From: Bacteroidota bacterium
GTDB lineage: Bacteria > Bacteroidota > Ignavibacteria > Kapaibacteriales > UBA961
Assembly: GCA_005788035.1 (NCBI GenBank)
Contig: SXZI01000063.1
Span: 27,220-91,219, forward strand
Direction of reading: 5' to 3'
DNA length: 64,000 nt
Part shown: piece by piece, positions 3,281-49,910 of the stretch
Position numbering within the stretch: the first letter of the stretch is position 1
How the letters are laid out: each line of letters starts with the position of its first letter
Program-made: the position numbers and the translations under genes
Notes under the pieces: model-generated
What the model was told of the DNA's origin: nothing
Seen by the model: only the letters and a program-made list of their open reading frames with translations
The model's database searches: none

Positions 3281-5335
3281 TTATTTAATAATGAGAAATG
3301 TTCCGTTTTTGATTTTTCCGGTTTGAACATCTTGCACATGTACAATATACATGCCTGTAGCAAGTGCTTGATCTGCATCAGAAATTAAGTCCCAAGCATG
3401 AATACCACCGGAAAATTGAATATCAGAGGCATTGAATGACCCTGTCTGAGAGAACCATTGTATATCCTGTCCTTCAGATACATTTTGCTCATGTTGCAAT
3501 GTAGCAACTTTATCTCCAGACAAAGTGAATATCGTAATCGTTGCTCTTTGAGGTAGATTATAAAAATATATTTTCCTTCCACGTTCAATATTAGCTTTTG
3601 CATCCCATGCAGCTGATACAGAATATGGATTGGGGAATATACCGACGGTTGTAGCAGAATCTGCAGTATTGACAATTGTTCCCGGAATGATGTTTTTTTC
3701 ATTTGCAAGTAAGCTTGATTCCAATGATGGTAGACCCGCTTGTTCATCCCCATCGCTAAATGCAGTCAATGTAATAGCATATTGCCAACCATTCAATAAA
3801 TCATTCAATGTATACACATAGTTATAGCCAACTGAGTCACCTTCAAAATACTTTACGGTAGGAATCCCTTGATCATCAGTTATGGCAATAGAAGTAAATC
3901 CATTGTCGTAGAATAAACCATTATCAGATTTATCAAAAGATGCTAGCATATTCCAATCTTTGGTGGTGCTTGTGAATTTAACTGGATTGGTTCTATAAAT
4001 TCTATATCCTTCGAAATTTCGTTTATTGGTAAGAATATCTTTAGCTGATTCGGCATTATTTGACCAATACAATAAAGCCTTCCTGTCTTGTACCTCTATC
4101 CTCATTTTTGGCGAAGGTGGGGGAGATGGTAAGATATATCGAACAATGCTGCCATCACCCTTTAAATCAATTTCAGTTGAATCAAGAATATTATTTCCAT
4201 TGACATCGGTGCCATTATATGCTCTTTGTGCCCAACCGGCATTATTGATCAGTGTCACTCTTGTTTCATCATCATTTCTTTCTGGGCTACCTGGTTTCTT
4301 TGCACATATAACTGCAAATGCAACATTAACAGAATCACCTGGAAGAATTCGTGAAAAAGGACCGACGGATAATAACTGGGATCTATTGCCTGCTTTTGAT
4401 ATCAACTTTTCAGCATCACTGATTTTCACTTGATTGAGAAATGTAGTTGAAAGTCTTCTATACTTCTCAATGTCTGTCTGAGGTGATTGCAACCACTCAT
4501 CACCTCTCGTATCTTGAAATGCCCAAACATTATAATTGGTCTTGGATTGCAGAGGTTCTGTACCCAGAAGTCTTATAGCTGCATAATTGTCTGCCAACCC
4601 ATTATCCCCAGAAATGTCCCATTCATACATCATCCGCATTGAATCTATCAGGGCATTTCCTCCGGCTCTATAAAAATCACCTCCACGCGGTGCTCGAATG
4701 GTTGTGTTCCGTATTACTAAATCCGTCCAAAAGCCAATGTAAGCACTGTCAATAGGAGAAGTTGAGACATTTTTCACTGTATATGTCAGAAGAACAAAAT
4801 AGTCAGCAAATGGAAAATTCCAGGCATAACTCTTAAATGAAACATGGAGTCCAAGGGGGTATTCATGTCCAGGAATACGCTGATTCAATTCAGGTACAAA
4901 AAGATTTGTATCGGTGAAATTGCAAACAAAATCTCTATGGCTTATCGCTTTGGGAGAATAATAGAGATCATTAGGTAAACTTGAGGACTGAACAAGATAA
5001 TTACTATCAATATTGGTGAATTCAAAACCTTGAGCAACATTCAATACAGAAGAAACATCAAGAGCCGCAGTTGTAACTGCCGTAATTTGATTCCCGCCAA
5101 TATTTTTTATTCCTCCAATCCATAAACCACCCAAAAACATGTGTTCAATCCCGCTTCCTCGAGGATATTCGCATGATGGAATTTTTGGCCATGCGGCGAA
5201 ACCGGTACCAATTGTTCCGAAACTGCTGATTGACAATCTGATATTTCCAACATCAGTTATCATTCTTTGCTCACCGGTTCCGGAAAGCAGGTGAGAATGC
5301 ATAAACAATATCAAAAGAAAAAGGTGTGTTTTCAT
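3281..5335 (-). CDS. Secreted hypothetical protein carrying a T9SS type-A C-terminal sorting domain.
   Basis: Start moved to the Met in MKTHLFLLILFMHSHLLSG (signal peptide, ATG at 5335). C-terminus ...GMYIVHVQDVQTGKIKNGTFLIIK is a Por-type CTD. Confidence 0.65.
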   Translation of the reverse strand: MKTHLFLLILFMHSHLLSGTGEQRMITDVGNIRLSISSFGTIGTGFAAWPKIPSCEYPRGSGIEHMFLGGLWIGGIKNIGGNQITAVTTAALDVSSVLNVAQGFEFTNIDSNYLVQSSSLPNDLYYSPKAISHRDFVCNFTDTNLFVPELNQRIPGHEYPLGLHVSFKSYAWNFPFADYFVLLTYTVKNVSTSPIDSAYIGFWTDLVIRNTTIRAPRGGDFYRAGGNALIDSMRMMYEWDISGDNGLADNYAAIRLLGTEPLQSKTNYNVWAFQDTRGDEWLQSPQTDIEKYRRLSTTFLNQVKISDAEKLISKAGNRSQLLSVGPFSRILPGDSVNVAFAVICAKKPGSPERNDDETRVTLINNAGWAQRAYNGTDVNGNNILDSTEIDLKGDGSIVRYILPSPPPSPKMRIEVQDRKALLYWSNNAESAKDILTNKRNFEGYRIYRTNPVKFTSTTKDWNMLASFDKSDNGLFYDNGFTSIAITDDQGIPTVKYFEGDSVGYNYVYTLNDLLNGWQYAITLTAFSDGDEQAGLPSLESSLLANEKNIIPGTIVNTADSATTVGIFPNPYSVSAAWDAKANIERGRKIYFYNLPQRATITIFTLSGDKVATLQHEQNVSEGQDIQWFSQTGSFNASDIQFSGGIHAWDLISDADQALATGMYIVHVQDVQTGKIKNGTFLIIK

Positions 5336-30459: not shown

Positions 30460-33400
30460 CTATTTATCCGTTTTAGGGTATAATAATGTCTGATTCCAAT
30501 ATTGACCTTGTAATGTTATTGCATACATGCCAATATTCATAGGAGGAAGTTTTACAAAATATTGTTCTCCCGAACGCATGGTGATTTGCTCATCATGTAT
30601 CGTTCTACCATCTATAGTAGTAATTCTGCAATGCATCGTTTCATTAAATGCTGAACGTAGATGAATCATATTTTCAATGATAATACATTGATAGGTTGGA
30701 AGAGCATTAATAGGCCTATATGTCCAAGCACAACCTGACATGTAAGGAATTGTACAATCTTGTAATTGGACATCGGCGCAATTCATATCCTGTTCAGCAA
30801 GTTTCAATTTGTAGGTATTTGATGTTCTTACATCATGTGGCAATAAAGGATTGAGTTGTAATTCAATTACAGAACTTTCTTGCTTTGTATTTTCAATATC
30901 TAGAAGGTATTCTCCGGTCCGTGATGGAAGTTGCTTTGCAATAACAGAACCTGACTTTATACTATGTGATTCAATTATTCCGGAAGTGGAGTCATATTCA
31001 ATAGCGAGCTTTATTTTAAAGGAGTAAGAAGGTAGGTTCAGCATAATCGGAAAACGAATACCAGGAATCATTTCTCCTGTAAAGGAAAGCGCTATCGGTA
31101 TATTAAGTGGATCTTTAACATTTATCGCCATTTCATCTGTTGCAGAGCAAAGACCATTTGAACCCGTTAACTTTACTATTATAGATTTCTTTGCATTCCT
31201 GAAAATAATTTTGTTATTGGATAGTGTATCAAATGCTTCATTGCTTTCCCAAAGGTATTGCAGCCCGCCATTTGCATTCAATTCAATATCATTACCCTTA
31301 CAAATCACTGTATCAACCGGAAGTGTAACAAGTGGTATATCTTCAACTTTTATATAGACTGAATCAGCAGATTCGCAACCATTTCTATCTCCGTTCACAA
31401 TGATCATGCCGGAAGATTTTGGCAGAATGGTAATTGAATCTTTCGATGTTGAGAGAACATTGCAATCTCCAACAACCTTCACATTAGAAGAAGGAAATAG
31501 CTGTATTACTACGTTGGAATTTCTACATACAATTGTATCTGAAGAACGGATAATTGGTAATTGTTTTTGAACTTTTACAAGTATGCTGTCAATGCTCGAT
31601 TTACAACCATCTTTGATACCCAAAAAAGAGAAGTATGTATCCATTGTTGGTTGAACGAGTAATTGATCTCCATTTTTGGACAATATTGACGGATGATCAA
31701 CCCATTCATACGTATCAGCTCCTGTTGCCTTCAATGAAGCTGTTTTGCCCAAACAGATTAAAGTGTCACCAATTACAGATATTGTTGGTTGGGGCTTAAG
31801 CGTAACAAATACACTATCCAAAACCTCGCAAGCACCATTGGAGCCTCGAACATAATACAAAGTAGAGGCATTGGGTTGAATAGAAATTTGATCACCTGTA
31901 CCAATATCGCCTAATTGACTTGTAAACCAAGAATATGAAGTAGCCCCGGTTGCTTTCAACAGGATTGAGTCTCCCTTACATACGGCAAGGTCTTGCCCGG
32001 CATCTAATGCCGGTAAAGGTAGAATGCGAATAGTAATTGAATCCGATCCTGTACAATTGCCGTTTTTTGCTTCAACATAATATGTAGTGGTTTGATTAGG
32101 GGAAAAAACAGGTTGAGATGACAATGTATCATCAATGCCATTAGGTGGATACCACCTATATGTTTGCCCGCCGGATGGTTTGATTCTAATTGGCTTTCCA
32201 GGACAAGTTGATGTATCGGAAGGCAGTGCAATTTCCAATTTATCTGCAACGGTAACATTCATGGTATCGCGAGAAGTGCATCCAGAAGAAGATGTAATTG
32301 TCAAAACATATTGCATTGAAGAAGTTGGTGTGCATGAGGGCGTTGGGCTTTTGGGATTATTCAAAAACGTAGTAGGAGACCATGAATATGAAGCCCCATT
32401 TTGAAATCCTGAACCTAAATTAATTGACTCACCGGGACAAGTAGATTGATCTTTACCAGCATCTGCAATAACAGCATCAACAACATTCACAGTTACAAAT
32501 GCAGTATCTATACAAAGTCCACTCGATACTATTACGCCATATATTGTGTTCTTATCCGGTCTGACAAGTGGGGAAGATGAAGATGTGTCTGATATATTAC
32601 TACCTTGAAACCATCTATATGTACTGCCTCCGAATGCCCTCAATTGCAGTGCATCTCCTCTACAAATAGTTGTATCAGCAGAGGTAGTTGCCGTGAGTGT
32701 ATTTTCTATCCTGACGAGCACCGTATCATAAGCTATGCAACCATAATCATTTGTTACTTTGACAATGAATGGAAAATTATTGGTTGGCGGTGAAGCGATA
32801 GTCTTTGATAGATTTGGATTTGAAACATATTGTTGAGGAGACCAGACATAAGTATATCCAGATTTTGGCTTAGATCCAATTTCTACACTACCTCCTGGAC
32901 ATGTAACTTTATCTGAACCAGCATCAGCTATTGGAAAAGGAACAACATCCACTCTTATAGGAATAGTATCAGAACAAACATTGTTTGATGCAACTAAAAA
33001 ATAAGTTGTAGATGAATCAGGGCTTGCAATAGGATTTGATATTGTTGTTGAAGATAGTCCATATGAAGGGAACCAGGAATATCTACTTGCTCCAAAAGCT
33101 TTTAACTGGACTTTTCCACCTTTACAAATGCTTGTTGGGACTTCATAAGTCACCGATACAGGAGGAAGTAGGCTAACGTGATATTGCTGTTTTATTTGAC
33201 ATCCAAATGGATTAGTAACAAAAACAGTATATGTGGTTGGCTGTGTTGGTTTTGCAATTGGATTTGCAATCATTGGATTGCTCAAACCTACAGATGGAGT
33301 CCATGAATATGTATATCCGGGTAATGATGGTGGACCAATCGTTATACCTGAACTAGGACATGCAAGAACTGAATCGCTACTTACCGCAAGATTATAGTCA

Positions 33401-34509
33401 ATCACCGAAGGTAATCCCAGAACGGTTCTACCCATATGATTCAACACATTGATTGAATATCCAATATCAGGACCGGGCATATTTGGTTTATTGATAACAT
33501 CCAATTGGCTTGGTACATCTGAGATAGCATATATCTTTCCATCTGGTCCTAATTGCAGACCGAATAATTTTCTGGTTCCGAGTGGTAAAGTCCACATTGA
33601 AGTGGCAATAGCAGCTTCGTTATTTTGAGATAAATCAAATTGAAACAATGCTGATTCTGAAGATCGTTGTTTATCCAATGTCCCTGAAGTAAATAACTTA
33701 TTACTATTCGGAGAAAATGCAGCTCCATAATTTCCATAACACTTGTTTTTGGCTATGAATTTAGGGCTTGTTGCCTGGCCTGTTTGCAAGTTGAAATCAA
33801 AAAGAACAATTGTTTGCAAATAGCTATTTCCATCGGCTTCAGATACAACAACAAGTTTAGATCCATCCGGTGATACTTTCATTGCTCCCACATTATAGAA
33901 ATTATTCAGATTACTATATGTTGAAACAACAGGATTGGTTGAAACACCCCCCGCGGTAACTTTATATGCAAGAATTCTCGATTGAGATTTATGATGATAG
34001 AGAACCCAGTATGTATTGTCGGCACAATGATATGTCCCGGCAATTTTTTCTGACATATTATCCTGGAGGACAACATTTGTCAAAAGCATAGAAGGTGCGC
34101 CTTCCAAACTTATGTGGGAATAGAATGACTTCGTTTCAGTTGCTCCAATACCTGTGAGATCAGGAGCAGTAAAAAGATAGACTCTCTGTGGATTAGCTGG
34201 ATCAGGAATGAAAATGCAACATTGGGTTGAGGAAATTCCACTTTTTATTGCATCACCGCCGGGAACTATAGTTCCATCTGCTTGATATAATTTTCTACCA
34301 TCTGAGTATAAAAGTGGATTTCCTGTTGCTGGATCGGAATGTACTGCACAACCTTCCCATGTATCCAATTTTCCTGTAATAGGTGTGGCAACTGCATTAT
34401 TGAATCTCAAACCACCAAATTTCCCAAAATACCATGTTTGATTCGGGGATTGTTGGCCAAGCAGTGTAGAAATACAAATGAGAAATATGGCAATGAACAA
34501 CTGCACCAT
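30460..34509 (-). CDS. Giant (1349 aa) secreted T9SS cargo protein with an N-terminal propeller-like region and about 10 tandem Cys-containing Ig/PKD-like repeats.
   Basis: Signal peptide. Repeating unit ...C.G..V.L.A.G...Y.W.P..GLS....P.A.P...TTY.V...N..C...D.V.V.V... (e.g. YTYSWTPSVGLSNPMIANPIAKP, YSWFPSYGLSSTTISNPIASP). C-terminal Por-type CTD ...GMYAITLQGQYWNQTLLYPKTDK. Confidence 0.7.
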   Translation of the reverse strand: MVQLFIAIFLICISTLLGQQSPNQTWYFGKFGGLRFNNAVATPITGKLDTWEGCAVHSDPATGNPLLYSDGRKLYQADGTIVPGGDAIKSGISSTQCCIFIPDPANPQRVYLFTAPDLTGIGATETKSFYSHISLEGAPSMLLTNVVLQDNMSEKIAGTYHCADNTYWVLYHHKSQSRILAYKVTAGGVSTNPVVSTYSNLNNFYNVGAMKVSPDGSKLVVVSEADGNSYLQTIVLFDFNLQTGQATSPKFIAKNKCYGNYGAAFSPNSNKLFTSGTLDKQRSSESALFQFDLSQNNEAAIATSMWTLPLGTRKLFGLQLGPDGKIYAISDVPSQLDVINKPNMPGPDIGYSINVLNHMGRTVLGLPSVIDYNLAVSSDSVLACPSSGITIGPPSLPGYTYSWTPSVGLSNPMIANPIAKPTQPTTYTVFVTNPFGCQIKQQYHVSLLPPVSVTYEVPTSICKGGKVQLKAFGASRYSWFPSYGLSSTTISNPIASPDSSTTYFLVASNNVCSDTIPIRVDVVPFPIADAGSDKVTCPGGSVEIGSKPKSGYTYVWSPQQYVSNPNLSKTIASPPTNNFPFIVKVTNDYGCIAYDTVLVRIENTLTATTSADTTICRGDALQLRAFGGSTYRWFQGSNISDTSSSSPLVRPDKNTIYGVIVSSGLCIDTAFVTVNVVDAVIADAGKDQSTCPGESINLGSGFQNGASYSWSPTTFLNNPKSPTPSCTPTSSMQYVLTITSSSGCTSRDTMNVTVADKLEIALPSDTSTCPGKPIRIKPSGGQTYRWYPPNGIDDTLSSQPVFSPNQTTTYYVEAKNGNCTGSDSITIRILPLPALDAGQDLAVCKGDSILLKATGATSYSWFTSQLGDIGTGDQISIQPNASTLYYVRGSNGACEVLDSVFVTLKPQPTISVIGDTLICLGKTASLKATGADTYEWVDHPSILSKNGDQLLVQPTMDTYFSFLGIKDGCKSSIDSILVKVQKQLPIIRSSDTIVCRNSNVVIQLFPSSNVKVVGDCNVLSTSKDSITILPKSSGMIIVNGDRNGCESADSVYIKVEDIPLVTLPVDTVICKGNDIELNANGGLQYLWESNEAFDTLSNNKIIFRNAKKSIIVKLTGSNGLCSATDEMAINVKDPLNIPIALSFTGEMIPGIRFPIMLNLPSYSFKIKLAIEYDSTSGIIESHSIKSGSVIAKQLPSRTGEYLLDIENTKQESSVIELQLNPLLPHDVRTSNTYKLKLAEQDMNCADVQLQDCTIPYMSGCAWTYRPINALPTYQCIIIENMIHLRSAFNETMHCRITTIDGRTIHDEQITMRSGEQYFVKLPPMNIGMYAITLQGQYWNQTLLYPKTDK

Positions 34510-34564: not shown

Positions 34565-35686
34565 TTATTTTGTTTGAGGGTAGAATACTAATAAATCATC
34601 GGGGATTTGGATCTCGGCCAATTCAGCTACCTGTATAAAATCCACTGGCGGGGGTTGTTCAAAAAGGAGATGTTCTTGTGTAATTGGATGTTGAAAACCC
34701 AGAATCCTTGCATGAAGTGCTTGTCTTTTCATGATTTCAAGGCATTCCTGAGCCTTTCTTTTCAAAGCTGTAGACTTTATTCCGGTATAAGCAATAGCAT
34801 TTCCTCCATATGAGACATCGCCAATCAATGGATGATGTATGCTCGAACAATGGACTCTTATCTGATGTGTTCTTCCTGTATGAAGTTTTACTTGAAGAAG
34901 GGAAGCGAAATGCCCCCTTGATCGTGTTACATATTCAGTTTTTGCTATTTTCCCCCCTTTATTTACCACAGAAAATATTTTTCGGTTTCTCGGCGAGGGA
35001 GCTAGCTGATTTTCTATTATATCATGATCTTTTTTTACGATTCCCCATGCCAATGCAACATATTCTCTTTGCACTGTTCTATCTGCAAATTGTTTAGTGA
35101 GTTGGGGTGTAATTGAACTTTGTTTTGATATAACCATTAAACCCGAAGTATCCTTATCCAATCTATGAACGATACCAGGTCGGAGTATATCATCACTTAT
35201 ATTGACAGCATCAATGAAATCATCTACAGGTAATGATATCTCTGATTCATCTTCTTCTTCGCTATATCCAAGCAGTGGTATAGCTTCTCGATGTCCAATA
35301 TGCCAAAGAACCGCATTGACCAATGTCCCATACCTGTTTCCAAAACCTGGATGGACAACAAGTCCTGCAGGTTTATTGATGACAAGTAAATATTCATCTT
35401 CATATAATATTGAGAGAGGAATATCTTCTGGAAGCAATTCCAATGGTGGTGGGCGCATAAATACACAGGTGATTACATCTCCCGGTTTAACTTTGTATGA
35501 ACCCTTTCTAGCAATACCATCTACATGCACTTGCTCATTGTCAATAGCAAGCTGAACCTTGTTACGAGTTGCATTTGCAATGGCATTGGTTATATATACA
35601 TCGAGTCTTATTGGTTCTTGACCTTTGGATACGATGAGTTCAATTGTCTTTTCAACATAATCAGGATATTGATTATTACTGTCCAC
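34565..35686 (-). CDS. rluD: RluA-family 23S rRNA pseudouridine synthase (RluD-like) with an S4 domain.
   Basis: S4 N-terminus. Catalytic HRLDKDTSGLMV motif. Confidence 0.8.
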   Translation of the reverse strand: MDSNNQYPDYVEKTIELIVSKGQEPIRLDVYITNAIANATRNKVQLAIDNEQVHVDGIARKGSYKVKPGDVITCVFMRPPPLELLPEDIPLSILYEDEYLLVINKPAGLVVHPGFGNRYGTLVNAVLWHIGHREAIPLLGYSEEEDESEISLPVDDFIDAVNISDDILRPGIVHRLDKDTSGLMVISKQSSITPQLTKQFADRTVQREYVALAWGIVKKDHDIIENQLAPSPRNRKIFSVVNKGGKIAKTEYVTRSRGHFASLLQVKLHTGRTHQIRVHCSSIHHPLIGDVSYGGNAIAYTGIKSTALKRKAQECLEIMKRQALHARILGFQHPITQEHLLFEQPPPVDFIQVAELAEIQIPDDLLVFYPQTK

Positions 35687-36290
35687 CTTGCTCCTTGATT
35701 TCTAAATTTGGCGGTTTAGCCGTAAATGGATAAGGTAGATGCTTATTGAACAAGATGAGCAAAATCATGCCTGATGTAACACATGAATCGGCTACGTTAA
35801 ATACTGGCCAATGAGTGTAGGTCAAAGTTCCTATTGTTATATCGGGTATGTCGATTTGTATAAAATCCACCACCAACCCATAGAACAGAGGACCCTCTTC
35901 ATATAGTACACCGTAAAACATTCGATCAATAAAGTTTCCGAATGCGCCGGCCAGAATAAGCATTATTGCAATGCGTATCCATCTATTGGCATTACTGATA
36001 ACTCTGAGATAATACGCCAAAGCAAATGAAGCAACTAGTGAAAATAATGTTAAGACTATTTTCCCTGAACCAAACTCGACTCCAAAAGCCATTCCTGGAT
36101 TTTCAACAAAAGTTATGCGAACAATTTCACCAAATACAGGGAAGCTCTCGCCTAAATGCATGCCTTCATGGTGAAAACCAAAGAGATTATATCCCTTAAC
36201 AGCTACCTTTGTGATCTGGTCAATTAGAACAAGTACAAAAGCCGCTATAAGATATGATAATGTTTGCCCGGATGTGGACTGCCGAATCAT
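35676..36290 (-). CDS. lspA: Lipoprotein signal peptidase (signal peptidase II).
   Basis: Four TM helices. Conserved FNVADS and catalytic Asp regions. Confidence 0.8.
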   Translation of the reverse strand: MIRQSTSGQTLSYLIAAFVLVLIDQITKVAVKGYNLFGFHHEGMHLGESFPVFGEIVRITFVENPGMAFGVEFGSGKIVLTLFSLVASFALAYYLRVISNANRWIRIAIMLILAGAFGNFIDRMFYGVLYEEGPLFYGLVVDFIQIDIPDITIGTLTYTHWPVFNVADSCVTSGMILLILFNKHLPYPFTAKPPNLEIKEQGGQ

Positions 36291-37273
36291 TCATTTCTAC
36301 CGGAAATTATATCAACTCCGTTTGCAGGACATCTTCCATGTATCTTAAATGAAGCCGATTGAGTCGTAATTGGAACAGCAAGCAGACGGGCCTTAGCAAT
36401 GAGAATATTACATTCTTTACAAATACCATATGTTTTATCATCAATGCGCTTTAATGCATCATCAAGTTTCTTGATATAATCAATGATTCTATTCATCTGA
36501 GCATATGTCTTTTCCTTTTCAAGTGCTTCAGAACCTTGCTCAGCCATGTGTACTGAATAAATCATTGTTTCAGAAGCCAACTCTGCATTTGTAAGATCCT
36601 CCAAACGCTCTCTGAGCATACGCATTTCATCCAAAGCATCTTCTTTGATCTTCAATATATGTTGCTTGAACATCTTGAGATCAGATTCTGAATAACGAAC
36701 CTTCTTTTTGGATGGGATGATTATTGGTTTTTCCTCTTTTGGTCGCATCGCAAATGCAGCAGCTCCTTTTCCTTCTGGCATTTTCATAGCCTCGAGGCCA
36801 GCAGCAGTTGGTTTTTCCGAAGCCTTATTACCAGACTTGGATCTACCGGCCGGCTTCTTCTCTTGAAGATTCAGTTGAAGAGGTGGCATTGGAATTCCCA
36901 AATCAATTATTGGTTCATCCGGTATAGGCATCACTTCTGGCTGTGCTGCTTTGCCTTTCTTTGTTTCTTCGGACTTTACATTTTTTTCAGATTTTGAACT
37001 TGCTTTTTCTTTTAGGGGCATAATGCTCTTTTGATCAGCAGCCTTATTTGGCTTGACCGTAGCTTTTGTTTTTGTGGTGACTGGCGGCTTTGAAGTAGAA
37101 ATACCTTTCTTTGAAACAGAAAGCGAAGCCGATTGCTTCGGAGTTGCCGATTTGGCACTCTTAACAATTGGCTTCGCTTGTTTTTTTCCGGCTTTGGCTG
37201 AAACAGCCGCCGAAGATGACTTCGCAACCTTTTTAGATGAAACAGGAGACTTGCCGACAATTGTTTTTGCCAA
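36287..37273 (-). CDS. DksA/TraR-family protein with a roughly 250-aa Lys/Ala/Ser/Pro-rich histone-H1-like N-terminal extension.
   Basis: C-terminal coiled-coil plus CKECN(x17) finger region. The second Cys pair is replaced (SASF...HGRC), so the zinc finger is degenerate. The N-terminal two-thirds are basic low-complexity (KKVAKSSSAAVSAKAGKKQAKPIVK...). Confidence 0.6.
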   Translation of the reverse strand: MAKTIVGKSPVSSKKVAKSSSAAVSAKAGKKQAKPIVKSAKSATPKQSASLSVSKKGISTSKPPVTTKTKATVKPNKAADQKSIMPLKEKASSKSEKNVKSEETKKGKAAQPEVMPIPDEPIIDLGIPMPPLQLNLQEKKPAGRSKSGNKASEKPTAAGLEAMKMPEGKGAAAFAMRPKEEKPIIIPSKKKVRYSESDLKMFKQHILKIKEDALDEMRMLRERLEDLTNAELASETMIYSVHMAEQGSEALEKEKTYAQMNRIIDYIKKLDDALKRIDDKTYGICKECNILIAKARLLAVPITTQSASFKIHGRCPANGVDIISGRNE

Positions 37274-37329
37274 TGGCTTTACCTGCTTCTTGGTTGTGAC
37301 TTTAGCAGATTTCGGTCCTTTACTAGGAC

Positions 37330-37698
37330 TTACTTTTTTTTTACGGCTGCTTTCTTAGCTGCCGGTCTTGCTGCTTTTTTTGCTGCCGGCTTTGCTGCTT
37401 TCTTAGCTGCCGGTTTTGCCGCTACTTTCTTTGCTGCCGGCTTTGCTGCTTTCTTTGCTGCCGGCTTTGCTGCTTTTTTTGCTGCTGGTTTTGCAGCTTT
37501 CTTAGCAGCTGGTTTTGCTGCTTTCTTTACTGCGGGCTTCGCAGCTTTCTTTGCTGCAGGTTTCGCAGCTTTCTTAGCAGCTGGTTTAGCTGCTTTCTTA
37601 ACAGCTGGTTTAGCTGCTTTCTTGGCAGCTGGTTTAGCCGCTTTCTTAGCAGCTGGTTTAGCCGCTTTCTTTGCTGCGGGTTTCTTAGTTGAGGCCAT
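37330..37698 (-). CDS. Histone H1 / AlgP-like basic repeat protein (about 13 AAKKAAKP units).
   Basis: MASTKKPAAKKAAKPAAKKAAKP.... Near-perfect 8-aa tandem repeats encoded by 24-bp DNA repeats. Own promoter element upstream. Confidence 0.6.
   Translation of the reverse strand: MASTKKPAAKKAAKPAAKKAAKPAAKKAAKPAVKKAAKPAAKKAAKPAAKKAAKPAVKKAAKPAAKKAAKPAAKKAAKPAAKKAAKPAAKKVAAKPAAKKAAKPAAKKAARPAAKKAAVKKK
37350..37685 (-). repeat. Coding tandem repeat, 24-bp unit (GCTGCCGGCTTTGCTGCTTTCTTT-like) in about 13-14 copies.
   Basis: Direct 24-nt periodicity visible in the sequence. In-frame with the H1-like CDS. Confidence 0.8.
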
Positions 37699-37766: not shown

Positions 37767-40700
37767 TCAATGAAACTTTGTGATGTTGACAAGGATAATG
37801 TCTTGTTCGATTTCAAGTGTGTGAACATCTTCACTCAAATGTTCAACATATTCACAACTTGTGCACAAAATTTCATTACAAACATAATCAGATAATTTGA
37901 TAATTGCATCACAAATTTCTTTTGATGCAAAAAATTTTACAATTACTCTATCAGTAACATGCAGTCCGATACTCTTTCTTAGGTTCTGAATTCTGTTTAC
38001 AAATTCGCGTGCTATGCCTTCTTGTTTTAAAGATTCATCAATTTCAGTATCAAGCGCAACTGTCAAAGAACCTTCATTCGCTACAAGCCAACCTTCCATG
38101 TCTTGTGTCATGACATCCACTTCATCCAAATTGATCAGTTGATCATTTCCATCAAGAGAAATGAGTAAGGATTGATCTTGAATCAATGATTTGATTTGTT
38201 GTTCATTCAAAGTGGAAATGATTGTAGCCACTGTTTGAGTTTGTTTGCCAAATCTCTTGCCCAATGCCTTGAAATTGGCTTTTACAGACCTTTTAACGAC
38301 ACCTGCTTCTTCACTGACATATTCCACTTCTTTAATATTTATCTCATCTTTGATGATTGATTCAACAGCTTGAATATCCCTTCTTTGTTGAGGAGAAATC
38401 ACCGGAATCAGTATTCTTCGAAGGGGCTGTCGAGTCTTGATTTTTGATTTTTCACGGAGTGATCTGGCCAAGAACACTATTGTTTGAGCCAAAGACATTC
38501 TTCTTTCCAAATCAACATCTATCAAAGACAATTCACCAGGGGATAATAGTCTCATGTGAATTGATTCGACATCCGAGTTCACTCGTAATCTTTTGAATAA
38601 GACCTCGGGTAAAAATGGTGCCGCGGGAGCCATCATGGACAATACATGAATTGTCACATCTCTTAACGTTTGATAAGCGGCGAGTTTATCACTATCCTTT
38701 TCACCCTTCCAAAATCTTCTCCGATTCCTTCTTACATACCAGTTTGAAACATCATTTATCATGAATTCTTGAACAATCCTGCAAGCTCTGAATACATCAT
38801 ATGCCTCCATATACTGATGATATTGACGAAGCACTGTATGAACTCTGGAAATAATCCATTTGTCTATTTCGGGCCGTTCATTATTAGGAATTATGCCCTC
38901 ATTTCCATCAATTTGATCGATATTGGCATAAAGAGCATAAAAGGAGTAAGTATTGGTCAATGTTCGGAAAAAGTCTGCAATGACAGTCTTTGCGATGTCT
39001 GATTCATTGAACAATGTTGGCCTCCAAGGTGGATTATTCACCATGAAATACCAACGAACAGCATCCGCGCCATATAGGTCCATCATCTGAAATGGATCAA
39101 CGGTATTACCCCTACTTTTTGACATTTTCAGACCGTTTTTATCCAAAACGAGTTCATTAACGATAATATTTTTGAATGCCGGCTTATCGAATAATGCAGT
39201 TGCTATATTATGAAGAGTGTAAAACCACCCTCTTGTCTGATCTATACCTTCGGATATAAAATCGGCAGGGAATTGAGATGAGAAAAGTTCTACATTTTCA
39301 AATGGATAATGAAATTGTGCAAAAGGAACACATCCAGAATCAAACCAAACATCAATGACTTCGGTTGTTCTACGATACACTTTGCCATTTTTTCTGAAAA
39401 TCACATTATCAACAAATGGCCTATGTAAATCCAAGGGCAAAGGGGCTTCCGGCACAGGAACAATAGAACCATCAGGGCATTCATATTCTCCCTTTGACAA
39501 CTCCTCGATCGATCCGACGGCAAACATGTCTTCTTTGTCTTCACTAATCCAAATAGGCAATGGAGTACCCCAATATCTATCTCTACTGAGAGACCAATCC
39601 TTGACTTCTTCCAACCAATTGCCGAATCGACCAGTACCGATTTCCTGTGGTTGCCAATGTATTGTCTTATTAAGATCAATCATTGACTTCTTATAAGAGG
39701 GTGACTTTATGAACCAGGAATTTCTAGCATAATACATCACAGGATTATCAGTTCGCCAACAATGAGGATAACTGTGCACATAATCAAATGATGATTTATA
39801 GATCTTTTTTGCTGTCTTTAATGCAATGATGATATCTTTATCGGAACCTTCCTCAACATGATCTGCATACTTGAAGGTTTTGATTGCTCTGCCGGCAAAA
39901 GGTGTAATCTCTTGGGTAAAATGTCCATTGGGCGTCACAGGCTGCAAAACCGGTAAATCGAATTTCTTTGACAATTCAAAGTCATCAACACCAAAAGCAG
40001 GGGATATATGAACAACTCCTGTCCCGTCTTCAGTTGATACAAATGATCCCGGCAAAATTGTCAAAGCATTCGGATGAACATTTTTGTCAATATGACAATA
40101 AGGGAAAATCTGCTCATACGAAGATCCTATGATATCTTTACCCTTAAAAGTCTTGATGATCGAGATCCCTTCACCAAGTAAACCTTGTAATGAATGAGCT
40201 ATTACATAATATTCAGGATTGGAATCTACATGTTTCACCTCGGCAAGCACATAGTCGATATCTTCACCAACAGCCAAGGCAACATTTGAAAAGAGAGTCC
40301 AAGGGGTTGTTGTCCAAACTAAAATTGAAGCATTGACCAATTCTTGAATTGGTGACTGTACGATGGCAAGCTTCAAATAGACACTGGGATCTTTCACTTC
40401 CCGATAGCCTAATGAAAGCTCATGGGAGCTTAGTGGTGTTTCAATTGTAGGGGATTGCGGAACAACTTTGTAGCCCTTATAAATAAGCCCTTTATCAAAA
40501 AAAGACTTCAATGCCCACCAGACAGACTCAACATATTCATTTGTGCAAGTTACATAAGCAGTTTTCATGTCGACCCAGTAACCCATACGCTTAGTAAACT
40601 CGCCCCAACCCATGTCTCTTTCTATATTGCTATAAACGAAGTCTCTGCATGTGGCATTGAATCTATCAATACCCATAACTTCAATTTCAGATTTGTTAAC

Positions 40701-41006
40701 AAGGCCTAATTGTTTTTCAACGGCAATTTCGACGGGTAAACCATGCGTATCCCATCCGGCTTGACGACGTACAAAATGATTTGTCATCGTTTTATAACGA
40801 CAAACAAGGTCTTTGTCAGTTCTTGCCATTAAATGATGAATGCCAGGATTACCATTGACGGTTGGAGGGCCCTCAAAAAAACTAAAGACAGGTGAATCTT
40901 TTCGCGCTGAAAGCGTTTGTTCGAATATTTGACGCTCATCCCAAAAGGCAAGGATTTCCTTTTCCAATTCAGGATAATGTAGTTTTTCGGGTAAGGGTTG
41001 ATACAT
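37767..41006 (-). CDS. ileS: Isoleucine--tRNA ligase (type 2).
   Basis: 1079 aa. HIGH-region PPTVNGNPGIHH. KMSKSRGN. Editing and anticodon-binding domains present. Confidence 0.9.
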   Translation of the reverse strand: MYQPLPEKLHYPELEKEILAFWDERQIFEQTLSARKDSPVFSFFEGPPTVNGNPGIHHLMARTDKDLVCRYKTMTNHFVRRQAGWDTHGLPVEIAVEKQLGLVNKSEIEVMGIDRFNATCRDFVYSNIERDMGWGEFTKRMGYWVDMKTAYVTCTNEYVESVWWALKSFFDKGLIYKGYKVVPQSPTIETPLSSHELSLGYREVKDPSVYLKLAIVQSPIQELVNASILVWTTTPWTLFSNVALAVGEDIDYVLAEVKHVDSNPEYYVIAHSLQGLLGEGISIIKTFKGKDIIGSSYEQIFPYCHIDKNVHPNALTILPGSFVSTEDGTGVVHISPAFGVDDFELSKKFDLPVLQPVTPNGHFTQEITPFAGRAIKTFKYADHVEEGSDKDIIIALKTAKKIYKSSFDYVHSYPHCWRTDNPVMYYARNSWFIKSPSYKKSMIDLNKTIHWQPQEIGTGRFGNWLEEVKDWSLSRDRYWGTPLPIWISEDKEDMFAVGSIEELSKGEYECPDGSIVPVPEAPLPLDLHRPFVDNVIFRKNGKVYRRTTEVIDVWFDSGCVPFAQFHYPFENVELFSSQFPADFISEGIDQTRGWFYTLHNIATALFDKPAFKNIIVNELVLDKNGLKMSKSRGNTVDPFQMMDLYGADAVRWYFMVNNPPWRPTLFNESDIAKTVIADFFRTLTNTYSFYALYANIDQIDGNEGIIPNNERPEIDKWIISRVHTVLRQYHQYMEAYDVFRACRIVQEFMINDVSNWYVRRNRRRFWKGEKDSDKLAAYQTLRDVTIHVLSMMAPAAPFLPEVLFKRLRVNSDVESIHMRLLSPGELSLIDVDLERRMSLAQTIVFLARSLREKSKIKTRQPLRRILIPVISPQQRRDIQAVESIIKDEINIKEVEYVSEEAGVVKRSVKANFKALGKRFGKQTQTVATIISTLNEQQIKSLIQDQSLLISLDGNDQLINLDEVDVMTQDMEGWLVANEGSLTVALDTEIDESLKQEGIAREFVNRIQNLRKSIGLHVTDRVIVKFFASKEICDAIIKLSDYVCNEILCTSCEYVEHLSEDVHTLEIEQDIILVNITKFH

Positions 41007-47844: not shown

Positions 47845-48270
47845 ATGGAAGACAAAAAAGCAGAAAATATCCTAGTCTTGGATTTGTCAAAATCAGATGG
47901 CGCTCCGGCTGAATACTTTGTCATTGGGTCTTGTTTATCTGAAGTTCAAGTCGATTCAGTCTCTTCTGCAGTAGAACGTGGGGGAAAAGAAGCCGGACAA
48001 GGTTTTCCTAAATCTGAAGGTTGGGATGCTAGACAATGGGTTATTTTGGATTATTTTGATGTTGTAGTTCATGTGTTTCATGCAGATGCTCGTGACTTTT
48101 ACAGAATCGAAAAACTCTGGAGTGATGCTGATTTCTATACTTTAAAAGAAGATAAGCTTTCGAAAATGACGAAGACAGCAAAACAGACATATCTCACTGA
48201 ATTATCAAAAGAACGTAGACTACCAGAACGCTTTAATCAAGCTTCCTCATTTGAGGAGGATTTTTTATGA
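47845..48270 (+). CDS. rsfS: Ribosome silencing factor RsfS (Iojap).
   Basis: ENILVLDLSK ... DYFVIGSCLSEVQVDSV ... WVILDYFDVVVHVF. Start chosen at MEDKK; the track start at 47764 gives an atypical extension. Confidence 0.7.
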   Translation: MEDKKAENILVLDLSKSDGAPAEYFVIGSCLSEVQVDSVSSAVERGGKEAGQGFPKSEGWDARQWVILDYFDVVVHVFHADARDFYRIEKLWSDADFYTLKEDKLSKMTKTAKQTYLTELSKERRLPERFNQASSFEEDFL

Positions 48271-49910
48271 TGCATACTTTCATCGAATCTTCTTTTCAAC
48301 AGGCTCTTGATGCAATGGGTATTGAACATCAAACGATTGCATTTGAAAGACCCAAAGTTGCTGAGCATGGTCATATGTCAACTAACATTGCCATGGTCCT
48401 TGCAAAGCAATTGAAAAAAAAACCACAGGATATAGCTCAAGAAATATTATCTCAATTGCAATATGATACAAGCTTTGTTCAATCTTTAGAAATAGCAGGC
48501 GCAGGTTTTATAAATATAAAATTCCAACCGAATGCCTTTCATCAAGCCATGCAAATAATGATGGGAAAAAAAAGGGATTTAGGAAAAACAACAGTCGGTT
48601 CCGGTAAAACAGCAAATATCGAATATGTCAGTGCCAATCCAACTGGGAAATTACATTTAGGGCATGGTAGAAATGCAGCTATTGGGGATACAGTGGCTAA
48701 TCTCTTGGAATGGTCCGGTTATAAGGTTACTCGTGAATATTATTTCAACAATGCCGGCAATCAAATGAATTTGTTGGCAGCATCTATTTATGCTCGATAT
48801 CGACATCTGATAGGTGATAATGAGTACCAATTTCCTGAAGATGGTTATCATGGTGAATATATTGCTGACATAGCTCAACAAGCATTGGATCTTCACGGAA
48901 AACAGTTAGCAGTTGAAAATCAAGATCATATTGAAATTTGCAAGAAATTAGGTGAGGAATGGTGTTTTTCATCAATTCTAGAAACATTGAAAAAAATGAA
49001 TATCCATCAGGATACATATTTCAATGAAGACTCCTTATTTACCGATGGCACTATTGCATCATTATTGAGTGAATTGAAAGAAAAGGGTCTGTCATATGAG
49101 AAAGATGGTGCAACATGGATGAAATTCTCTTCTATTGATGAATCACTCACGGACAGAGTTATCGTGAAAAGTTCCGGCGAACCAACATACCGATTGCCAG
49201 ATATTGCCTATCATCGGACGAAATTTGAAAGAGGCTATGACTTGATAGTCGATATCTTCGGCGCTGATCACATTGCGACCATACCGGATGTAAAAGCAGG
49301 AATACAAGCCCTGGGATATGATGTTTCGAAGCTCAAAGTACTCATTTATCAATTTGTAACGCTTTGGGATAATGGCGAACAAGTAAAGATGTCTAAAAGA
49401 TCAGGCAAAAGTTATACACTTGATGAACTTATAGATGAAGTTGGAGCTGATGTTGTCAGGTTTTTCTTTATCATGCGAGGGGCTCAAACCCAATTGGAAT
49501 TTGATCTTCAGATAGCACGAGAGCAAAATGATAAAAATCCAGTGTATTATCTTCAATATGTCCATGCAAGAATATGCTCGCTTATACAACAAGTACACGA
49601 TCATGATAAGCAAGTTCTCGAACATCCGGATCTTTCTACTTTGACTCATCCTTCTGAAATCACTTTAATTGGTACCCTAACTCGATTTGAGGAAGTGGCA
49701 ATAAGAGCTGCACATCATCTTGAACCACAAATGTTGGCTGAATATTTACGAGAAGTCGCATCTGCATTTCATTCTTTCTATCATGATTGCAGAATACTGG
49801 GTTCTGAGCATGCTGTTTTGTCAGCTAGAGTGCATTTAGCATTATTAACAAAAACCGTCATGAATAATGGATTGACAATTTTAGGAATTTCATCACCCGA
49901 ATCAATGTAA
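48267..49910 (+). CDS. argS: Arginine--tRNA ligase.
   Basis: SANPTGKLHLGHGRNAAIGD (HIGH) and KMSKRSGK. Confidence 0.9.
   Translation: MMHTFIESSFQQALDAMGIEHQTIAFERPKVAEHGHMSTNIAMVLAKQLKKKPQDIAQEILSQLQYDTSFVQSLEIAGAGFINIKFQPNAFHQAMQIMMGKKRDLGKTTVGSGKTANIEYVSANPTGKLHLGHGRNAAIGDTVANLLEWSGYKVTREYYFNNAGNQMNLLAASIYARYRHLIGDNEYQFPEDGYHGEYIADIAQQALDLHGKQLAVENQDHIEICKKLGEEWCFSSILETLKKMNIHQDTYFNEDSLFTDGTIASLLSELKEKGLSYEKDGATWMKFSSIDESLTDRVIVKSSGEPTYRLPDIAYHRTKFERGYDLIVDIFGADHIATIPDVKAGIQALGYDVSKLKVLIYQFVTLWDNGEQVKMSKRSGKSYTLDELIDEVGADVVRFFFIMRGAQTQLEFDLQIAREQNDKNPVYYLQYVHARICSLIQQVHDHDKQVLEHPDLSTLTHPSEITLIGTLTRFEEVAIRAAHHLEPQMLAEYLREVASAFHSFYHDCRILGSEHAVLSARVHLALLTKTVMNNGLTILGISSPESM

Follow-up and report, generated by a model that had tools for sequence, protein, structure and literature searches.

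A conserved A-run probably joins an H1-like and a DksA-like reading frame into one recoded gene in Kapabacteria

Are there two genes or one between ileS and lspA on the minus strand of the window? The window is the whole stretch of DNA that was analysed, 64,000 nucleotides (nt) from a Bacteroidota bacterium (contig SXZI01000063.1, assembly GCA_005788035.1). An open reading frame (ORF) for a histone H1-like protein is followed here by an ORF for a DksA/TraR-like protein with a long basic N-terminal region. An earlier note on this DNA, made from the sequence alone, took the two for adjacent genes. Comparison of related loci suggests that they are most likely one recoded gene, in which programmed −1 frameshifting or RNA polymerase slippage at a conserved run of A residues joins the two ORFs. 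We put the probability of this reading at about 0.75. The elements of the junction, with lengths in amino acids (aa), are as follows.

37330..37698, minus strand: H1-like ORF (0 frame), (AAKPAAKK)n repeats, 122 aa, ATG start
37334..37342, minus strand: A9 run, proposed shift site; the 0 frame reads GTA AAA AAA AAG TAA
37333..37339, minus strand: slippery heptamer A AAA AAG, phased with the H1-like ORF (direct sequence reading)
37330..37332, minus strand: TAA stop of the H1-like frame, immediately 3' of the heptamer
37274..37333, minus strand: 20-codon linker VSPSKGPKSAKVTTKKQVKP, −1 frame
36287..37273, minus strand: DksA-like ORF as delimited in the earlier note, 328 aa from a TTG

The H1-like ORF (A 45%, K 37%, P 11%; isoelectric point (pI) 12) gives no Pfam match at threshold, and its ATG is preceded at 8 nt by TAAGGTG, which resembles a Shine-Dalgarno (SD) sequence. 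Relative to the H1-like ORF, the DksA-like ORF is read in the −1 frame. This frame is open for 27 codons upstream of the TTG, past the H1-like TAA and across the A9 run, and reads ...RKKKVSPSKGPKSAKVTTKKQVKP-L(TTG)AKTIVGK. Upstream of the linker there is no start codon in the −1 frame, and the linker can be reached only by ribosomes that come from the H1-like ORF after a −1 shift. The TTG of the 328-aa ORF has no SD sequence and is not conserved among close relatives. The window type has TTG as its start codon, one relative (L085) has an ATG placed three codons before that position, and others have GTG; in three others (L005, L086, and L106) a non-start codon takes the place of the TTG, and no start occurs for 104 codons past the run. 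Since the TTG is unconserved and lacks an SD sequence, and since the frame is open further upstream, 37273 probably does not mark the true N terminus of the protein encoded in 36287..37273. The annotation pipelines disagree on the starts of the orthologues, giving 214 aa (P0008, NCBI), 256 aa (P0030/31), or 309–336 aa (P0001–P0029), a divergence that fits the lack of a genuine initiation site.

The same arrangement is found in eight loci of the window lineage, reached via proteins or a genome scan (one genome per species, 80 loci); all have A9 and an open −1 frame. The search pattern for metagenome contigs allowed A8–A11, and the run is exactly A9 in 22/22 relevant contigs, with 30 lineage contigs in total. 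The run contains a slippery heptamer of the type X XXY YYZ, A AAA AAG in phase here and A AAA AAA in the other clade described below. The A AAA AAG at 37333..37339 is identical in sequence to the heptamer of −1 frameshifting in Escherichia coli dnaX. Within the lineage, synonymous and non-synonymous codon differences in the linker are 63:63, vs 152:587 in the next 84 codons.

A neighbor-joining tree of the DksA-like core domain groups about 30 species-level loci in one deep clade, where the H1-like ORF ends with GCA AAA AAA AAA, followed by 0–3 codons and a stop. The run is A10, except for A11 in L054 and in CP129493.1, a complete genome with the same order of H1-like ORF, run, and DksA-like ORF. 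In about 31 species-level A10/A11 loci the run is never shorter, and here too the DksA-like ORF is in the −1 frame, without a stop across the run. The codons AAA AAA AAA are present in 29/29 loci of this clade, though AAG is the favored Lys codon of these genomes and AAA makes up only 9.5% (76/802) of the Lys codons in the H1-like ORFs, and the codon giving the tenth A is GCA in 30/30 loci, GCA being 37% of the Ala codons. Because the three AAA codons and the GCA are kept against codon usage, the A10 run appears to be under selection at the nucleotide level; it has three more A's than the heptamer requires. With A9 in 30 contigs and A10/A11 in about 31 loci, a homopolymer of at least 9 A/T is held at a fixed length beyond coding need.

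The sequence that separates the run from the first start codon should also be considered. In subclade 1 of the A10 clade, differences before the earliest start fall on the three codon positions as 94/79/193, and the synonymous to non-synonymous ratio is 114:162, vs 166:592 further downstream. Judging from these substitution patterns, the stretch has the signature of translated sequence. Among all split loci, the first possible start lies 7–104 codons after the run and differs among close relatives. A strong SD sequence is placed 7–9 nt before the H1-like ATG in 32/33 of these loci and before the first start of the DksA frame in only 2/33. A conserved −1 ORF that has no initiation signals of its own thus overlaps the end of the 0-frame ORF, and, as far as sequence comparison can tell, the arrangement is kept in two separate Kapabacteria clades comprising about 39 species-level lineages.

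Two explanations that place the shift in the DNA or in the data bear on these counts. An error of sequencing or assembly in the homopolymer was rejected: the length recurs in about 60 contigs, which come from many projects and were built with many assemblers and include one complete genome, and two different run lengths in two clades both give the −1 relation. The lack of any in-frame run length and of a fused protein, described next for phase variation, speaks against such an error as well. The run could instead change its length by replication slippage, so that a population would toggle between split and fused states. Homopolymer tracts of 9–11 nt are mutable (PMC1088944), and the two states are one base apart. 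We regard such phase variation as highly improbable, because an in-frame length is seen in none of the about 60 independent contigs (22/22 with A9; A10 and A11 with the same frame relation) and because a collection of 5.8 billion proteins, searched with a virtual junction peptide, yielded no in-frame fused protein of the lineage among the best 8000 candidates scored. The assemblies give a consensus run length, so that minor variants within a population could escape.

Some relatives carry both parts in a single frame. In about 40 other loci of Kapabacteria, a single ORF of 255–533 aa with an ATG start begins 30–250 nt after ileS, and there is no separate H1-like gene. In L062 ((KKAPAPA)n), L078, L081, L021, and L060, H1-like repeats are in frame with the DksA-like part. 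The single ORF of L060 has 311 codons of H1-like repeats without ATG, GTG, or TTG; its likely start is an ATT at about 1925–1945, with TAGGG six nt before it, giving M-AKAKAKEEG. In a sister clade (L011–L013), the DksA-like protein is tail-less, 166 aa long, and starts with MA[SA]TKK. The context of this start, AAGGT...ATGGC.TCAAC, is that of the H1-like ORF of the window (MASTKK), and this homology of start and context suggests that the H1-like ATG is the ancestral start of the dksA-like gene.

How might the two frames be joined? Translation would begin with the ATG of the H1-like ORF, since no other start here has an SD sequence, and most ribosomes would end at the TAA (37330–37332) to release a free 122-aa H1-like protein. 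In a fraction of events, reading would move to the −1 frame at A9. On the ribosomal route, this would occur by tandem slippage on A AAA AAG or by P-site slippage with the stop codon waiting in the A site; on the transcriptional route, RNA polymerase would add one extra A to the run. Either route would give the identical fusion of 470 aa (49.6 kDa, pI 10.3), composed of the H1-like repeats, the 20-residue linker, the basic tail, and the DksA-fold domain in this order. By analogy with DdbA of Streptomyces, the basic part would attach the protein to DNA or the nucleoid, and the C-terminal coiled coil would insert into the secondary channel of RNA polymerase. Shorter DksA-like isoforms from internal starts may also exist. 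The analysis shows the anatomy of the sequence, its conservation, and the DksA fold; we infer the occurrence and efficiency of the shift and its route, as well as the binding to DNA and to RNA polymerase.

Our rough split between the routes is 45% for the transcriptional one and 40% for the ribosomal one, the remainder being for both. Polymerase slippage is favored by the run never falling below 9 in about 60 contigs and by the three A's that the A10 clade keeps beyond the heptamer, and runs of 9 A/T are efficient slippage sites of bacterial RNA polymerase (PMC5009743, PMC1088944). Ribosomal frameshifting is favored by the heptamer being in phase in both clades, by the optimal A AAA AAG directly before the stop in the window lineage, and by the hairpin with which the A10 clade follows its run. 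A search of the window for tRNA genes, aimed at tRNA-Lys because of the shift-proneness of A AAA AAG, found none. The recoding site, which lies in a cellular and non-mobile gene, might further fix the ratio of the free histone-like protein to the form bearing the RNA polymerase module and, if it is the polymerase that slips, might act as an autoregulatory switch, since the product would itself be an RNA polymerase-binding factor through which the gene could sense or feed back on the polymerase. We consider this extension quite unlikely. In E. coli, GreA and GreB alter slippage at A9 and DksA does not (PMC4666387).

The RNA downstream of the run was assessed by folding each sequence against its local background. 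In the A10 clade, a hairpin begins 0–2 nt past the run, and its stability exceeds that of the background (median percentile 0.10; 22/24 below 0.25); its stems differ between subclades in a compensatory manner. Since neither the length nor the sequence of the hairpins is uniform, RNAalifold found no consensus structure when 21 junctions of the A10 clade were aligned with MAFFT. In the window lineage, only a stem of 4–5 base pairs (GTCC..GGAC) follows the run, with a stability not above background.

On the plus strand, the hairpin GGTCCTTTACTAGGACT followed by T9 (37314–37342) was picked up by a terminator scan and resembles an intrinsic terminator, and its equivalent in the A10 clade is a stronger hairpin with T10. 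The run and hairpin may accordingly be read as a transcription element: an antisense intrinsic terminator, a partial terminator, or a 3' stabilizer that raises the H1-like mRNA. The stability of the A10-clade hairpin and its varying stems would also suit such a role. However, all neighbors lie on the same strand, so there is no convergent gene to terminate; the hairpin is weak and not significant in the window lineage; and the open, coding-like −1 frame and the absent start signals would be left unexplained. As a replacement for recoding this is very unlikely, and such an element could coexist with recoding.

Several observations weigh against recoding. In the window, no significant RNA structure follows A9 (about 53% of background windows from the same locus fold at least as stably), neither a dnaX-like upstream SD sequence nor a properly spaced downstream stem-loop is present, and the junctions of the window and of L108, when scanned with Rfam, showed chance-level matches only, with no frameshift element. 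A stimulatory structure about 5–9 nt downstream, usual for a frameshift site, is thus lacking; the stop codon directly past the heptamer could act as the stimulator. The A10-clade hairpin is nearer to the run than is usual for a canonical stimulator. The linker differences in the A9 clade fall on the codon positions as 58/46/73, a modest coding signature, and codon usage does not single out the A9 run in this clade, because AAA is the common Lys codon (65%). A9 runs are not rare by chance: two are found in the window, vs 2.7 expected at its 37% G+C. (The second and only other A/T run of 9, at 48414–48422 on the plus strand, lies in frame inside a 547-aa ORF, 48267..49910.) The window has the TTG, so the 328-aa protein could arise without recoding. 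A codon about 50–55 before the core is conserved in the A10 clade as GTG (14 loci) or ATG (7 loci), GTG being 25% of the other Val codons, and it is preceded by AGGAA or GGGAAG (e.g. L028, L038, L049, L084, L034, and L042). This codon looks like an internal start and suggests that the cell produces a separate DksA-like isoform of about 185 aa as well, which can coexist with recoding. The absence of a fused protein among the candidates scored from the 5.8-billion-protein collection may be counted on the same side; a called fusion being absent neither supports nor refutes slippage.

Two ordinary genes translated separately would accommodate several of these points. The DksA-like protein would then start either at an internal ATG or at the first TTG, GTG, or ATG, which in the window is the TTG of position 37273, the A-run would merely encode Lys-Lys-Lys, and the open −1 frame upstream would be a leftover. 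All gene callers and annotators call two genes, a fused protein is called in no database, and both the TTG in the window and the conserved internal GTG/ATG of the A10 clade are available as starts. We nevertheless hold this explanation to be unlikely. It does not account for the all-A run kept against codon usage in 29/29 loci, nor for a −1 frame that is open across the run in all of the about 39 species-level loci, with 7–104 codons free of starts and stops in which substitutions are biased to the third position. The supposed starts lack an SD sequence in 31/33 loci and are placed in conflict by the pipelines (214, 256, and 309–336 aa), and both the single-ORF relatives and the homology of the sister-clade start point to one gene. 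Recoding of a single gene is therefore preferred. The earlier note had named a frameshift or sequencing error that splits its ORF into an H1-like ORF and a DksA of normal length as what would undo its view; a shift site does appear to be present, but in the reverse sense, joining the H1-like ORF to the DksA-like ORF.

The DksA-like ORF contains the following parts, numbered from the TTG.

36701..37273, minus strand: basic low-complexity tail, residues 1–191
36746..36886, minus strand: conserved 47-residue segment PPLQLNLQEKKPAGRSKSGNKASEKPTAAGLEAMKMPEGKGAAAFAM, residues 130–176, within the tail
36290..36700, minus strand: DksA-fold core, residues 192–328
36410..36421, minus strand: CKEC, the kept first CxxC (C285/C288)
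36347..36358, minus strand: SASF, residues 306–309, in place of the second CxxC
36329..36331, minus strand: C315, third invariant Cys, in an RCP motif

In an AlphaFold model of residues 182–328 (36 aligned sequences; predicted local distance difference test (pLDDT) 83), two long antiparallel helices (about 196–234 and 242–278) form a coiled coil and are followed by a small globular end. The best structural match in the PDB by Foldseek is DksA2 of Pseudomonas aeruginosa (4IJJ; E 1e-5, template modeling (TM) score 0.67/0.76). Further matches are E. coli DksA, alone or on RNA polymerase (1TJL, 7KHI, and 5VSW), and Chlamydia DksA (6PTG), the latter being also the best PDB match in sequence (E 4e-8). 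Alignment with E. coli DksA by hhalign has a probability of 95%. The C-terminal 137 residues are thus predicted to have the DksA/TraR fold, a coiled coil plus a small globular domain. Curated family cut-offs are not reached by the ORF, though the E-values are significant: Pfam zf-dskA_traR (PF01258) matches residues 281–305 with 21.7 bits (E 2e-4; cut-off 24.9), NCBIfam yteA (TIGR02890), the best NCBIfam match, gives 60.1 bits (E 3e-16; cut-off 134.4), and NCBIfam dksA (TIGR02420) gives 41.5 bits (cut-off 115.5). Precomputed PF01258 matches are present on more distant Kapabacteria homologues. The DksA/TraR-like nature of the C-terminal part of 36287..37273, proposed in the earlier note, is in this way borne out by profiles, AlphaFold, and Foldseek.

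The zinc finger does not follow the C4 pattern CxxC-x17-CxxC. C285 and C288 of CKEC are kept, and S306 and F309 replace the second pair, with HGRC following at residues 312–315, as the earlier note had seen. The position of SASF corresponds to that of the second pair, since C288 + 18 is S306 just as C117 + 18 is C135 in E. coli. Neither this loss nor the tail is a peculiarity of this protein: an alignment of 34 Kapabacteria homologues has C285, C288, and C315 without exception and, at the second pair, S and F/Y/W throughout. C315, in the RCP motif, lies 27 residues downstream of the CxxC, is invariant in all Kapabacteria homologues, and might complete a three-Cys metal site with C285 and C288. 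Degenerate fingers of the C2 and C1 types occur in functional, accepted DksA proteins (PMC9126822), so a missing C4 finger does not exclude membership of the family. At the tip of the coiled coil, the motif IYS.HMAEQGSEA is invariant, with E245 and E249, and is common to Chlamydia DksA. The tip region is 12 residues longer than that of E. coli DksA, and in the hhalign alignment the Asp pair of DxxDxA does not align. The core has a pI of 6.4 and is under strong purifying selection (823 synonymous vs 185 non-synonymous differences in the lineage comparison), from which it follows that the core is expressed; pseudogenization was rejected on the same ground.

The basic tail comprises 191 residues, fewer than the about 250 given in the earlier note (K 21%, A 13%, S 13%, P 10%; pI 10.3; net charge about +26). 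The note had likened it to the neighboring H1-like protein. The likeness holds for charge and not for sequence, the tail being non-repetitive and rich in S and T beside its (AAKPAAKK)n neighbor. It evolves fast, with non-synonymous differences outnumbering synonymous ones. What stands is a protein in which a long N-terminal region, basic and probably disordered, is combined with a DksA-fold module, within the gene order ileS, dksA-like, lspA, and rluD. By analogy with DdbA, the tail may bind DNA or the nucleoid, and the DksA fold together with this precedent is consistent with a secondary-channel factor tethered to DNA, as the note had supposed.

Within the tail, the segment of residues 130–176 is almost invariant among lineage homologues that have 68–89% overall identity. 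Since synonymous sites in it are free to vary, it is the peptide that is constrained, and the segment may be a conserved linear motif with a partner. Packing of the segment onto the globular DksA domain was rejected because AlphaFold leaves it disordered (pLDDT <50), and a conserved internal SD sequence and ATG hidden in it were rejected because free synonymous sites indicate no constraint at the nucleotide level.

The tail is the common form in this clade, an outcome that the earlier note had itself named as speaking against its view. A protein search gave 437 homologues of 183–406 aa, which, where named, come from metagenome-assembled genomes (MAGs) of Kapaibacteria/Kapabacteria. Nearly all of the 80 loci of the genome scan have a K-rich N-terminal extension, with open frames of up to 550 codons, and the lengths of Kapabacteria homologues range overall from 183 to 533 aa. 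Among 1.8 billion cluster representatives searched, distant relatives with 35–48% identity are likewise extended by K-rich sequence, several with textbook AKK repeats. Seven proteins of 35–45% identity (P0169, P0173, P0192, P0196, P0199, P0205, and P0227) have K/A/P/T-rich N-terminal extensions of 150–290 residues, and one of the extended DksA-like proteins in this range of identity has a finger of the Bacteroidetes type, YGICRVTGK. Histone-like tails on DksA-like factors therefore seem widespread and little studied. Assemblies often break or hold runs of N in the H1-like repeats (L003/L004 at 3642–3741, L022, and L048; contig ends in L001, L006, and L017). As a consequence, many MAGs are without the upstream half, and the dksA-like gene seems to stand alone.

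The genes around the junction are as follows.

37767..41006, minus strand: ileS (isoleucyl-tRNA synthetase), 1079-aa ORF, upstream neighbor
35676..36290, minus strand: lspA (signal peptidase II), Pfam Peptidase_A8; its ATG overlaps the DksA-like stop (ATGA)
34565..35686, minus strand: rluD-type pseudouridine synthase, Pfam PseudoU_synth_2, closing the conserved gene string

The gene ileS is conserved context across all related loci, with Pfam tRNA-synt_1 and Anticodon_1 matches on the orthologues in L003, L004, and L108. After rluD, a 1349-aa Ig-like repeat protein with many Cys-containing modules (30460–34509, minus strand) is syntenic in L001, L003, and L004, and its orthologues show weak matches to Pfam Ig_7. 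A scan for sigma-70 promoters gave a number of sites not above that in shuffled sequence.

Conserved recoding in bacterial chromosomal genes is rare, and the classic cases are prfB and dnaX. Literature searches, and a 2016 recoding review in the portion available, offered no conserved recoding case for a dksA-like or histone-like gene. If true, the junction would be a new case of recoding across dozens of species, of interest to the fields of frameshifting and polymerase slippage, and would extend the single studied fusion of a histone-like part with DksA, DdbA, to another phylum. The common K-rich extensions of distant DksA-like proteins suggest that physical coupling of nucleoid proteins with regulators of RNA polymerase is widespread. 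In practical terms, pipelines annotate a pair of genes, place the second start differently (giving 214 to 336 aa), and assembly gaps in the repeat region hide the arrangement.

Among known proteins, YlyA of Bacillus subtilis binds RNA polymerase. Its gene adjoins ileS (PMC5282499), the same neighborhood as here, but YlyA is without a basic tail, and the score of the window protein is far under the cut-off of the YlyA/yteA family TIGR02890 (60 vs 134 bits). DksA of Chlamydia trachomatis (6PTG, C1 type) shares the tip YS.H.A[DE]QG[ST][DE], and dksA adjoins lspA in Chlamydia. Like it, the zinc-independent DksA2 of P. aeruginosa (4IJJ, C2 type) has a degenerate finger. Both of these proteins are short, about 130 aa, without a basic extension, and the window protein, which retains the CxxC, lacks the second pair, and has an invariant Cys further downstream, shows a Cys pattern distinct from theirs. 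Chlamydia Hc2 and Pseudomonas AlgP have (A/P)AKK-type repeats and extreme basicity in common with the H1-like ORF of the window, and some relatives match Pfam HC2 (PF07382); the likeness to Hc2 and AlgP is one of low complexity, with no demonstrable homology.

For the proposed shift, dnaX is the closest parallel at the nucleotide level, since the heptamer of E. coli (ribosomal −1 frameshifting) is identical to that in the window and the A9 of Thermus thermophilus (RNA polymerase slippage) is identical in length (PMC1088944, PMC5009743). In dnaX, too, a slippery A-run inside a cellular gene leads to two proteins in a fixed ratio, as is proposed here; the shift in dnaX, however, shortens the product (gamma vs tau), whereas here it would lengthen it, as in OrfAB of insertion sequence elements. 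In tssM of Citrobacter rodentium, a cellular gene interrupted at a poly-A tract, transcriptional frameshifting on an A-run gives short and full-length products that are both used (PMC4256274). That example is of an unrelated gene family in one species, whereas the present arrangement extends over about 39 species-level lineages.

The closest parallel in architecture is DdbA (SCO2075) of Streptomyces coelicolor, which has an H1-like N-terminal domain and a DksA-like C-terminal domain and shows DksA-like genetic activity; its N-terminal part binds and condenses DNA in vitro (PMC3643593). This is the experimental precedent, by analogy, for the idea of a DNA-tethered secondary-channel factor. The annotated ORF of the window has the same type of architecture, with a 191-residue basic tail of pI 10.3 placed N-terminal to the DksA domain, and in DdbA, as here, the basic part is longer in some species than in others. 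DdbA is, on the other hand, encoded by one ordinary ORF and retains the C4 finger as well as the equivalents of Asp71 and Asp74, with orthologues found only in streptomycetes (PMC3643593). In the window protein, the second Cys pair is missing, DxxDxA is not recognizable, and the repeats stand in a separate ORF that would be joined only by a −1 shift. The window protein, from a different phylum, is not an ortholog of SCO2075 but an analogue or a distant positional counterpart. A DksA-like protein with a basic tail and one with a degenerate finger are kinds already known, and the conserved recoding link between the two ORFs is the new point.

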